A stretch of DNA of 64,000 bases. Source: Escherichia coli. GTDB taxonomy: Bacteria; Pseudomonadota; Gammaproteobacteria; Enterobacterales; Enterobacteriaceae. The notes below the pieces were generated by a model, which made no database searches, had not been told where the DNA came from, and worked only from the letters and a program-made list of their open reading frames with translations. This document shows, in pieces, positions 12,101-51,866 of the stretch. Within the stretch, counting starts at the first letter, position 1. Each line of letters starts with the position of its first letter. The stretch is from NCBI RefSeq assembly GCF_051903065.1, contig NZ_CP178438.1; one strand, given 5' to 3'. The position numbers and the translations under genes were made by a program.

Positions 12101-12418
12101 ATGATCGTGCAAAAAGAGCTGGTTGCTATTTACGATTATGAGGTCCCTGTACCTGAAGATCCGTTTTCCTTCAGACTTGAGATCCATAAATGCTCTGAAT
12201 TATTTACAGGTTCCGTCTATCGACGGGAGCGATTCCGGCTACATCCAACATTTCATCAACGTGATCGAGAAGATGCTGACCCGCTAATAAATGATGCGTT
12301 GATTTATATAAGAGATGAGTGTATTGATGAGCGGAAATTACGAGGTAAATCACCTGAAACTGTAATAGCAATTTTTAATCGTGAACTACAGAATATATTC
12401 AACCAAGAAATAGAATAA
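12101..12418 (+). CDS. yehK: Small uncharacterised protein (105 aa)
   Basis: Tracked ORF in an AT-rich segment; position between yehI and yehL. Confidence 0.6.
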   Translation: MIVQKELVAIYDYEVPVPEDPFSFRLEIHKCSELFTGSVYRRERFRLHPTFHQRDREDADPLINDALIYIRDECIDERKLRGKSPETVIAIFNRELQNIFNQEIE

Positions 12419-12527
12419 TATACTCTAGATAATTCAAGTCGCAGCACATGCAACTTGAAGTATGACGAGTATAGCTTTATTAAAGGGGGAAGCGGTTTTC
12501 CCCCTTAGATGCGTTTCAATTTGCCCG

Positions 12528-12617
12528 TTACTTCAACAAATCAATCAACCGTAACAGAGCCACTAATAACTCCAGTACGGCAATGAGCACGATTAACTTT
12601 TGTGTCAGCGTGTCCAT
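12528..12617 (-). CDS. zorO: Type I toxin, 29-aa hydrophobic peptide MDTLTQKLIVLIAVLELLVALLRLIDLLK
   Basis: Hand translation of the minus strand: ATG at 12617-12615 preceded by AAGGAG Shine-Dalgarno, stop TAA at 12530-12528; matches the ZorO/ZorP peptide as I recall it; assignment of O versus P to copy 1 versus copy 2 is arbitrary. Confidence 0.75.
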   Translation of the reverse strand: MDTLTQKLIVLIAVLELLVALLRLIDLLK

Positions 12618-12798
12618 CCGCTCTCCTTATTAAGGAGCGCAACACCAGCACCTTACCCTTACACTGCCTGTCGATACTGGTTTACGTATGTTGGTACGAA
12701 ACGTTGCTCTCCGGATCAGGGCACCGCCTGCGGCACCACCCGTCCAGCAGCCAGGACTTAAAATTGGTCCGATCCGGCACAACCTCCCAACGGGCAGG

Positions 12799-12826
12799 AT
12801 TATAAATCTCATTCACTGAATTGCAA
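12799..12826 (-). promoter_or_regulatory. Predicted sigma70 promoter for the toxin mRNA (gives a 5' UTR of about 174 nt)
   Basis: Minus-strand -10 TATAAT (plus 12799-12804) and -35 TTGCAA (12821-12826) with 16-bp spacer; TSS predicted near 12791. Confidence 0.5.
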
Positions 12827-12849
12827 TGGAGTGTGGATATGGTTATAAT
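12821..12849 (+). promoter_or_regulatory. Predicted sigma70 promoter for the antitoxin sRNA
   Basis: -35 TTGCAA (12821-12826), 17-bp spacer, -10 TATAAT (12844-12849). Confidence 0.6.
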
Positions 12850-12855
12850 TTATTC

Positions 12856-12938
12856 GTTGGTACGAAATGTTGCACAATCAGCAAGTTAGCGTCACTGTAG
12901 TAAATAAAAGAACCTGCCTCACCAGCAGGTTTTTTTAT
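12856..12938 (+). ncRNA. orzO: Antitoxin small RNA (OrzO-like), about 80 nt
   Basis: Bounded by the consensus promoter and an intrinsic terminator; nt 12856-12873 (GTTGGTACGAAATGTTGC) can pair over 18 nt (one G-U) with the toxin 5' UTR encoded at 12689-12706. Confidence 0.7.
12912..12937 (+). terminator. Intrinsic terminator of the antitoxin sRNA
   Basis: Stem ACCTGC / GCAGGT, loop CTCACCA, followed by TTTTTTT. Confidence 0.75.
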
Positions 12939-13135
12939 TTTCTGCGATCTACTTTCCAGATATTTTTTGCCAATAGCCCACCATAAATATTCACATCCCG
13001 GTCAAATGGTGCGTTGAATATAAAATCGATGAACTTATAAATAAACATGAGTTATATGATGAATTAATAAAAACAGTAATCATTTTATTAAAGGGGGAAG
13101 CGGTTTTCCCCCTTAGATGCGTTTCAATTTGCCCG

Positions 13136-13225
13136 TTACTTCAACAAATCAATCAACCGTAACAGAGCTACTAATAGCTCCAGTACGGCAATGAGCACGG
13201 TTAACTTTTGTGTCAGCGTGTCCAT
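13136..13225 (-). CDS. zorP: Type I toxin, 29-aa hydrophobic peptide MDTLTQKLTVLIAVLELLVALLRLIDLLK
   Basis: Hand translation; ATG at 13225-13223, stop at 13138-13136; differs from copy 1 by one residue (T9 versus I9). Confidence 0.75.
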   Translation of the reverse strand: MDTLTQKLTVLIAVLELLVALLRLIDLLK

Positions 13226-13406
13226 CCGCTCTCCTTATTAAGGAGCGCAACACCAGCACCTTACCCTTACACTGCCTGTCGATACTGGTTTACGTATGTT
13301 GGACCACGATGTTGCACTCCGGATCAGGGCACCACCTGCAGCACCACCCGTCCGGTAGCCAGGACTTGAAATAGGTTCGATCCGGCGCAACGTCCCAACG
13401 GTCTGG

Positions 13407-13434
13407 ATTATAAATCTCATTATCTTAATTGCAA
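13407..13434 (-). promoter_or_regulatory. Predicted sigma70 promoter for the second toxin mRNA
   Basis: Same architecture as copy 1: minus-strand -10 TATAAT (plus 13407-13412), -35 TTGCAA (13429-13434). Confidence 0.5.
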
Positions 13435-13457
13435 CGGGGTCCAGCCGTGGTTATAAT
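13429..13457 (+). promoter_or_regulatory. Predicted sigma70 promoter for the second antitoxin sRNA
   Basis: -35 TTGCAA (13429-13434), 17-bp spacer, -10 TATAAT (13452-13457). Confidence 0.6.
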
Positions 13458-13463
13458 TCGTTC

Positions 13464-13546
13464 GTTGGAACACGATGTTGCACAGGCTGTGGTGTTAGGC
13501 CTGAAAATAGTAAATAAAAGAACCTGCCTCACCAGCAGGTTTTTTT
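13464..13546 (+). ncRNA. orzP: Antitoxin small RNA (OrzP-like), about 80 nt
   Basis: Promoter plus terminator; 13464-13483 (GTTGGAACACGATGTTGCAC) is complementary to the UTR segment encoded at 13298-13317 with one mismatch. Confidence 0.7.
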
Positions 13547-13547
13547 A
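13522..13547 (+). terminator. Intrinsic terminator of the second antitoxin sRNA
   Basis: Stem ACCTGC / GCAGGT followed by TTTTTTT. Confidence 0.75.
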
Positions 13548-13657
13548 TTTACTATGATCTGCTTTCCAGATATTTTTTGCTCAAACAACTAATGCGCCAA
13601 ACATTTATTGCGCGTAAAATATCGTTTATTTCATTAATACATTTCAGGGATGAATAT

Positions 13658-14746
13658 ATGTCACCGCAGAATAATCATCTGCAGCGTCCGCCTGCTGCTG
13701 TGTTATACGCCGATGAACTGGCAAAATTAAAACAAAATGATACCGCACCTTGCCCGCCCGGTTGGCAGTTAAGTTTGCCTGCGGCCCGTGCTTTTATCCT
13801 TGGCGATAGCGCGCAAAATATTAGCCGTAAAGTGGTGATTAGTCCCTCCGCTGTCGAACGTATGTTAGTCACTCTTGCCACCGGACGCGGTTTGATGTTG
13901 GTGGGGGAACCTGGCACCGCAAAATCTCTCCTGTCTGAATTACTGGCAACCGCTATTAGCGGCGATGCCGGGTTAACCATCCAGGGCGGTGCATCTACTA
14001 CCGAAGATCAAATCAAGTACGGCTGGAACTACGCCCTGCTTATCAATCATGGTCCATCAACGGAAGCGCTGGTCCCTGCCCCGCTTTACCAGGGAATGCG
14101 CGACGGCAAAATCGTCCGTTTTGAAGAGATAACGCGTACACCGCTGGAAGTGCAAGACTGTCTGTTAGGTATGCTTTCTGACAGGGTGATGACGGTGCCG
14201 GAACTCACTGGTGAAGCCAGTCAGCTCTATGCGCGAGAAGGCTTTAATATTATTGCCACTGCCAATACCCGCGATCGCGGCGTCAATGAAATGAGTGCTG
14301 CGCTAAAGCGTCGCTTCGATTTTGAAACTGTCTTTCCGATTATGGATTTCGCCCAGGAGCTGGAGCTTGTCGCCAGTGCTTCGGCGCGTTTGCTGGCCCA
14401 TAGCGGTATTCCGCATAAAGTGCCTGACGCGGTACTGGAGTTACTGGTCCGCACTTTCCGCGATCTGCGTGCCAACGGCGAAAAGAAAACGTCAATGGAT
14501 ACACTAACAGCGATTATGTCCACCGCTGAAGCCGTGAACGTGGCCCACGCTGTGGGCGTCCGCGCCTGGTTTTTGGCGAATCGCGCAGGTGAGCCAGCCG
14601 ATCTGGTGGACTGTATTGCCGGAACCATCGTTAAAGATAACGAAGAAGATCGCGCTCGTCTGCGCCGTTACTTCGAACAGCGTGTCGCCACACATAAAGA
14701 AGCTCACTGGCAGGCTTATTATCAAGCCCGCCACCGCCTGCCGTGA
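13658..14746 (+). CDS. yehL: MoxR-family AAA+ ATPase (362 aa)
   Basis: Walker A GEPGTAKS; start chosen at MSPQNNH within tracked ORF 13577..14746. Confidence 0.85.
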   Translation: MSPQNNHLQRPPAAVLYADELAKLKQNDTAPCPPGWQLSLPAARAFILGDSAQNISRKVVISPSAVERMLVTLATGRGLMLVGEPGTAKSLLSELLATAISGDAGLTIQGGASTTEDQIKYGWNYALLINHGPSTEALVPAPLYQGMRDGKIVRFEEITRTPLEVQDCLLGMLSDRVMTVPELTGEASQLYAREGFNIIATANTRDRGVNEMSAALKRRFDFETVFPIMDFAQELELVASASARLLAHSGIPHKVPDAVLELLVRTFRDLRANGEKKTSMDTLTAIMSTAEAVNVAHAVGVRAWFLANRAGEPADLVDCIAGTIVKDNEEDRARLRRYFEQRVATHKEAHWQAYYQARHRLP

Positions 14747-33979: not shown

Positions 33980-34152
33980 GATGAGCATTCAGATAGTGGT
34001 TCACGCGCACGGGTTGCGCACCGCCGGAGTAAGGATTTACTGAGGCTAGCGACGCCATCATAACGAGCAAAAAGTGCGATCGTCAAAGGAGAATCGTGTG
34101 GAAATGCTGCATTGCTGACATTTATGCCAGCAATGCAACGTCAAAGAACTTT

Positions 34153-51689: not shown

Positions 51690-51866
51690 GCATCCGGCAT
51701 TTGGCACCGATTGCCGGATGCGGCTTGAACGCCTTATCCGGCCTACAAAACCATACAAATCAGTATGTTGAGCTCATTGTAGGCCGGATAAAACGCGCCA
51801 GCGTTGCATCCGGCATTTGGCTCCTGTCGCCGGATGCGGCGTGAACGCCTTATCCGGCCTACAAAA
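51690..51866. repeat. Cluster of REP elements (BIME)
   Basis: Repeated GCCGGATGCGGC...GCCTTATCCGGCCTACA units in alternating orientation between preA and mglC. Confidence 0.8.

Follow-up and report, generated by a model that had tools for sequence, protein, structure and literature searches.

The locus studied here raises a simple question: when a toxin mRNA and its antitoxin small RNA (sRNA) start back-to-back, and one hexamer is the -35 element of both promoters, can transcription of the one restrain that of the other? The question bears on how a chromosomal type I toxin is switched on; the regulation of this family, zor-orz, "remains to be deciphered" according to a 2025 review. We analysed 64 kb of Escherichia coli DNA (contig NZ_CP178438.1 of assembly GCF_051903065.1), referred to as the window, meaning that entire stretch. 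If the two promoters compete, toxin and antitoxin synthesis would be anticorrelated for each chromosome copy without a protein regulator, and the work on bidirectional promoters with a shared -10 would be extended to a shared -35 geometry. If they do not compete, the locus would carry a compact, evolutionarily locked promoter pair.

A preliminary description of this DNA had proposed a toxin mRNA paired with an sRNA antitoxin, and this proposal was borne out. Both sRNAs score above the gathering threshold of 60 for RF02083, the OrzO-P family of Rfam, and each is divergent from a minus-strand reading frame for a hydrophobic Zor peptide of 29 residues, MDTLTQKL(I/T)VLIAVLELLVALLRLIDLLK. In E. coli genomes, yehK and yehL flank the homologous loci, where the annotation reads yehI-yehK ... 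yehL. The Rfam matches, the Zor reading frames and this gene context identify the locus as the zorO-orzO/zorP-orzP type I toxin-antitoxin system of E. coli O157:H7 (EDL933). Its discovery was reported by Fozo et al. 2010 (PMC2887945), and its characterisation followed in Wen et al. 2014 and 2017 (PMC3919570, PMC5397157). It is the same locus as that of EDL933 in these papers and in Shore et al. 2024, with no sequence difference: the yehK-yehL position, the 29-residue ZorO and ZorP, the 18-nt pairing region, the 174-nt UTR and the TTGCAA/TATAAT hexamers all recur.

Approximately 18 nt at the 5' end of the sRNA are complementary to the toxin UTR, with predicted duplex energies of -31 to -34 kcal/mol at +85..+102. 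In published work OrzO pairs through its first 18 nt and is abundant during exponential growth, no ZorO protein can be detected from a single copy, and both the toxicity of Zor and its rescue by Orz have been shown by experiment (PMC3919570). The coordinates of all features are collected in Table 1. In the consensus scan the Orz terminator hairpin (12911-12931; 13521-13541) was also scored as terminator-like on the minus strand, where it is followed by CTTTTATTTA, and it could act bidirectionally. Other Rfam matches in the window were naRNA4, a REP-derived nucleoid-associated RNA, at 51782-51859(-) with 85.8 bits, and the Peptidase-S11 cis-regulatory RNA motif at 33984-34064(-) with 72.8 bits.

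Table 1. Features of the two zor-orz copies in the window, and the IS481-family element of other E. coli genomes (last line).
Feature	Position	Strand	Remarks
Shared palindromic -35 TTGCAA, copy 1 (zorO/orzO)	12821-12826	both	invariant in 26/26 Orz-anchored modules; -35 of zor and orz in PMC11264685, Table 3
P_zorO -10 TATAAT	12799-12804	-	16-bp spacer to -35
P_orzO -10 TATAAT	12844-12849	+	17-bp spacer to -35
Shared palindromic -35 TTGCAA, copy 2 (zorP/orzP)	13429-13434	both	sequence and consensus scan
P_zorP -10	13407-13412	-	16-bp spacer
P_orzP -10	13452-13457	+	17-bp spacer
zorO start, +1 G	12791	-	7-nt GC-rich discriminator
OrzO start, +1 G	12856	+	6-nt AT-rich discriminator
zorP start, inferred	13399	-	homology to copy 1
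OrzP start	13464	+	primer EF541
OrzO sRNA antitoxin, ~82 nt	12856-12937	+	Rfam RF02083, 88.8 bits over 12863-12936
OrzO terminator hairpin, T run after	12911-12931	+	
OrzP sRNA antitoxin	13464-13547	+	Rfam RF02083, 99.9 bits over 13471-13546
zorO ORF, 29 aa, MDTLTQKLIVLIAVLELLVALLRLIDLLK	12528-12617	-	
zorP ORF, 29 aa	13136-13225	-	
zorO 5' UTR, 174 nt	12618-12791	-	nt 1-22 pair with +74..+102 in predicted fold
OrzO target in zorO UTR (+85..+102), inside EAP region	12690-12707	-	predicted duplex -31.3 kcal/mol; PMC3919570, PMC5397157
IS481-family element	L040 1537-2628 (NZ_CP157110.1, UTME-9)		also in L041; hits H41-H45

Read directly, positions 12799-12849 have the structure ATTATA-N16-TTGCAA-N17-TATAAT, which is repeated at 13407-13457. 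A consensus scan of 12400-13700 reported four promoter-like sites and no others, each matching the consensus at 10 of 12 positions. Sequence reading and scan agree and so confirm, in both copies, the arrangement given in the preliminary description: one palindromic TTGCAA, 17 bp from a plus-strand TATAAT and 16 bp from a minus-strand one. Alternative -35 registers reach at most 3/6 matches for either promoter, and the extended TGn motif is absent at both -10 hexamers in the scan; TTGCAA is the only plausible -35 for each promoter. Nowhere else in the 64-kb window does one hexamer serve as -35 for promoter-like sites on both strands that each match at 9/12 or better. At that threshold on both strands, 200 first-order Markov simulations gave a chance expectation of 0.015 such sites per 64 kb (mean), and 10/12 on both strands was never reached in the 200 simulations of the window. 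The shared -35 arrangement is far from chance.

Primer extension by Fozo et al. [quoted passage not shown] The 5' UTR of zorO is 174 nt long with its RBS at +164..+169 (PMC5397157), which together with the RBS AAGGAG at 12628..12623 puts the zorO +1 at 12791(-), 7 nt below the -10. For OrzO, the cloning primer EF537 (PMC3919570 supplement) identifies +1 as the G of GTTGGTACG, and the primers EF537 and EF790 join the vector start to GTTGGTACG; combined with the 18-nt pairing region at the OrzO 5' end, this puts the OrzO +1 at 12856(+), 6 nt below the -10. The positions predicted beforehand, near 12856 plus and 12791 minus, match these published primer-extension, UTR and primer coordinates.

At the orz-only locus of MG1655 (NC_000913.3) the predicted starts are 2,204,402(+) and 2,204,337(-), and no matching coordinates were found in the supplements of the ROSE in vitro transcription and Cappable-seq studies. 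The Adams 2021 supplement gives Orz 3' ends only, on the plus strand, at 2,204,446 and 2,204,485, and a text search of that supplement for coordinates 2,204,270-2,204,329 returned nothing. In the MG1655 homologue, Term-seq places the Orz 3' end where the T run ends.

This anatomy can be read from the literature. Shore et al. 2024 (PMC11264685, Table 3) give the -35 (TTGCAA) and the -10 (TATAAT) for Zor and Orz alike, and as a single TTGCAA lies between the two starts, their annotation necessarily refers to one hexamer for both promoters. The -35 conservation that they report is also the same for both genes, 99.4/99.4% among the 2,439 full loci and 99.7/99.7% among the 656 loci with orz alone. 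The promoter anatomy is therefore already known, being implicit in published work. The words "shared" and "palindromic" were not found for this -35 in the searchable full texts of the zor-orz papers, no promoter-competition experiment or "switch" statement on zor-orz was found in the searchable literature, and literature searches for divergent promoters with a "shared -35" gave nothing specific; the mechanistic idea of competition appears to be unpublished. New here are the comparative conservation, the chance estimate, the hexamer ranking, the mirror-symmetric starts and the promoters split by insertion sequences.

For the comparative analysis, modules were gathered via the Orz terminator anchor alone, so that the promoter was not presupposed. 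The material searched was the window itself, 10 genomes of E. coli drawn from different identity bands, three further Escherichia species and 25 metagenome contigs. ATTATA, TTGCAA and TATAAT are present in each of the 26 distinct Orz modules obtained. In the 25 standard modules the zor spacer is always 16 nt long and the orz spacer 17 nt, and variable columns number 0 of 18 in the hexamers versus 33 of 47 in the spacers and discriminators (Fisher p about 9e-8). Variation is particularly high in the spacer on the orz side (TGGAGTGTGGATATGGT, CGGGGTCCAGCCGTGGT, CACTGTCCAGAGGTGGT, CGGGGGACGGAGGTGGT and others). Selection on the hexamers and their spacing, with the intervening DNA free to change, would be expected to give such a pattern. 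The conservation of TTGCAA establishes a need by at least one promoter and cannot show a need by both.

Why the hexamer should be TTGCAA can be addressed by full enumeration. Among all 4096 hexamers it ranks first in the worse-of-two-strands match to TTGACA (4/6 on each strand), in a ranking whose base-frequency weights are approximate, and it is the only palindrome with a TTG core on both strands. Any change of the -35 that improves one promoter damages the other, and this alone can explain the invariance; TTGCAA would then be kept as the sole hexamer giving a TTG core to both strands.

An RNA polymerase bound at a promoter has a footprint of roughly -55 to +20. The two -55..+20 footprints overlap here by ~46 bp (about 12801-12846), and a single 6-bp element is the -35 of both promoters. 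Two polymerases would each have to place sigma region 4 on this element, so docked complexes cannot coexist. The preliminary description had proposed that, if both promoters are used, a polymerase bound at one would exclude the other, a built-in switch between toxin and antitoxin transcription; we infer the mutual exclusion of docked polymerases from the geometry and the established structure of RNA polymerase.

Given this, the best explanation, to which we assign a probability of about 0.6, is that zor-orz is driven by a 65-bp back-to-back pair of sigma-70 promoters which share TTGCAA and compete in cis, with the antitoxin side favoured. Sigma region 4 of just one RNA polymerase would occupy TTGCAA, making initiation complexes exclusive, and fixed asymmetries would bias the outcome: the optimal 17-bp spacer and AT-rich discriminator of the antitoxin promoter against the 16-bp spacer and GC-rich discriminator of the toxin promoter. 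P_orz would be the dominant promoter during growth and, when occupied, would act as a modest transcriptional brake on the toxin, with a strength that scales with P_orz activity. P_orz may be active enough for competition, considering its perfect -10, optimal spacer and abundant sRNA. Because the circuit has no feedback, a tuning effect or graded brake is expected rather than a true bistable switch. RNA levels also reflect stability and OrzO-triggered RNase III cleavage, and abundance does not isolate a promoter effect. A practical consequence is that deletion of the orzO promoter or mutation of its -35, made in order to study the toxin, alters the toxin promoter too.

The asymmetry is a constant property of the standard modules. 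In the antitoxin promoter the spacer is always 17 bp and the 6-nt discriminator AT-rich (1-3 G+C); in the toxin promoter the spacer is always 16 bp and the 7-nt discriminator GC-rich (4-6 G+C). A 17-bp spacer and an AT-rich discriminator favour the antitoxin side, and GC-rich discriminators go with promoters that are sensitive to supercoiling and ppGpp. This composition suggests less stable open complexes at the toxin promoter, with sensitivity to ppGpp and supercoiling. In the spacers the bias is reversed, AT-rich in P_zor and GC-rich in P_orz, and this could counterbalance the advantage of 17 over 16 bp; the relative strength of the two promoters is a matter of interpretation and is not readable from the sequence.

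The two sides are in another respect symmetric. The starts lie exactly 33 nt to each side of the TTG|CAA centre and 65 bp apart, and they are equidistant from the dyad because 16+7 = 17+6. Both RNAs begin in a CGTTGG region (GUUGG at the RNA 5' start), and the same is seen in copy 2. In the predicted folds of the zorO and zorP mRNAs, leader nucleotides 1-22 pair with +74..+102, the published EAP region including the Orz target at +85..+102. In every variant the first ~15 nt of the leader and the first ~20 nt of Orz are predicted to pair with the same UTR site. The toxin leader would in this way mimic the antitoxin 5' end in cis, which is the probable reason for the symmetric start regions.

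Alignment of the arms in mirror orientation gives 20/45 and 17/45 ungapped matches, and identity is found at functional elements alone, namely one half of the -35, the CGTTGG of the start regions and, shifted by 1 nt, the -10. As identity is confined to functional elements, common origin is indistinguishable from common function. An origin of the unit by inverted duplication, with no arm similarity beyond functional elements, is possible but unsupported. The look-alike segments are 12769-12791(-) versus 12690-12718(-), and 12856-12875(+), and likewise in copy 2.

Other readings of the shared hexamer must be weighed against competition. We regard it as possible, at roughly half the weight of competition, that the two promoters fire independently, with TTGCAA shared by compaction or history, occupancy low, clashes negligible, and the arrangement kept as a local optimum or as a relic of the origin of the sRNA gene. 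The closest evidence comes from five E. coli promoters with a shared -10 (Warman et al. 2026, PMC12825309). All five lacked competition at basal activity, where killing one direction was no help to the other, and steric competition was shown only once one direction was strongly activated. By analogy with these promoters, the switch effect in zor-orz is possibly weak. Variants uncoupled by an insertion sequence (see below) are viable, post-transcriptional control by OrzO and the zorO leader already accounts for toxin repression, and the pseudo-palindromic unit, with 33 nt on each side and CGTTGG on both, is compatible with inverted duplication. That history is, however, unsupported, the arms being alike at functional elements alone, and with its perfect -10s, near-optimal spacing and abundant OrzO, P_orz may exceed the "basal" promoters of PMC12825309. 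We are more doubtful still of an extended form of competition, in which antitoxin transcription is a direct cis brake on toxin transcription without RNA pairing, and in which the inverted duplication is included. A busy P_orz would then physically block P_zor, and when P_orz falls, e.g. in stationary phase with OrzO declining, P_zor would be freed on the same DNA molecule. The mirror symmetry (equidistant starts, GUUGG, common UTR site) would derive from an antitoxin gene that arose by inverted duplication of the toxin promoter together with its self-inhibitory leader.

Co-stimulation instead of exclusion would result if the negative supercoils of an escaping polymerase open the other promoter 65 bp away, a twin-domain mechanism reportedly described for ilvY-ilvC. 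The divergent geometry, the very short separation and the GC-rich P_zor discriminator found in every variant (4-6 of 7) would suit such a coupling. OrzO is only ~82 nt long, though, so the polymerase travels a short distance and little torsional stress would build up, and docked complexes would still be unable to coexist; we judge this improbable. Least probable of all, and rejected, is an operator at the symmetric centre by which a dimeric regulator would control both promoters jointly. In copy 1, positions 12814-12833 (CACTGAATTGCAATGGAGTG) do form an imperfect palindrome of 20 bp, 83% complementary and centred on the -35, but this extended palindrome is specific to copy 1 in the window, being missing from copy 2, and it is also missing from most variants. 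What is conserved is TTGCAA plus one flanking A, with flanks that vary freely; six bp is too short for a typical dimeric operator, and no regulator of zor-orz is known, in line with the verdict of the 2025 review cited above.

Among known systems, the bidirectional promoters of Warman and Grainger (PMC12825309) resemble zor-orz in that a symmetric element is read both ways and two polymerases cannot bind together. This class differs in that its shared element is a pseudo-symmetric -10 with starts typically 10, 18 or 23 bp apart, whereas zor-orz shares a -35, has two separate -10s (12799-12804, 12844-12849) and starts 65 bp apart. The authors of PMC12825309 state explicitly that "separate promoters that are divergent" do not belong to it. 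The type I loci tisB-istR-1 and shoB-ohsC (also dinQ-agrB and timP-timR) are alike in having a small membrane toxin, a long processed 5' UTR and a divergent adjacent sRNA whose 5' end pairs with the toxin UTR. In the table of Shore et al. (PMC11264685), which covers three loci, only zor/orz has the same -35 hexamer for both genes. The published -35s of shoB/ohsC differ (GTGACC versus TTGTAA or TTGTAC), and so do the toxin and antitoxin -35 hexamers of tis/istR.

Tn10 tetA/tetR and phage P22 Pant/Pmnt are also back-to-back overlapping promoters, in which weakening one raises the other, and they are governed by the repressors TetR, Mnt and Arc. They resemble zor-orz in this overlap, and unlike it they are repressor-governed, whereas no zor-orz regulator is known.

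Natural variants in which the two promoters are separated were found in five complete E. coli genomes. In these, a 1.09-kb IS481-family element (profile match NF033577, scoring 221.5 bits where the curated cut-off is 224) sits directly left of TTGCAA (12820|12821), between the zor spacer and the -35, with a target duplication of CTGAA. The toxin -10 and its 16-nt spacer abut the end of the element and the toxin -35 becomes TACACA, while the antitoxin side keeps TTGCAA and the zor reading frame is intact. The metagenome contig L017 has a 20-bp insertion at the same point, equal to the first 20 nt of the element, in a different zor-orz allele, and its sister contig L037 has the normal arrangement. 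The insertion in L017 had been considered as a natural uncoupling mutation, which was rejected because it consists of the terminal 20 nt of the IS481-family element; it is apparently a scar of recombination between the TTGCAAT borne by the element and the native TTGCAAT. The split genomes together with the scar mean that the sharing of the -35 is not indispensable. In every observed split case TTGCAA is retained by the antitoxin promoter. The inverted repeats of the element themselves contain ATATTGCAAT, and the palindromic -35 region may for this reason be a preferred target.

Two metagenome contigs, L021 (around 680) and L030 (around 461), have non-cognate zor and orz types sharing a promoter. 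Their predicted duplexes are -21 to -22 kcal/mol, against -31 to -34 kcal/mol in most cognate pairs and -25.8 kcal/mol in one O-type variant. The apparent breakpoint is within the conserved promoter core, and these contigs are the result of either recombination between tandem copies or chimeric assembly.

Orz-only strains (L003, L009, L039), including K-12, keep the zor leader +1..+28 and an intact toxin promoter (MG1655 about 2,204,310-2,204,337). The endpoint of the deletion in these strains coincides with the natural delta-28 processing site of the zorO mRNA. The remnant toxin promoter would transcribe antisense into yehK.
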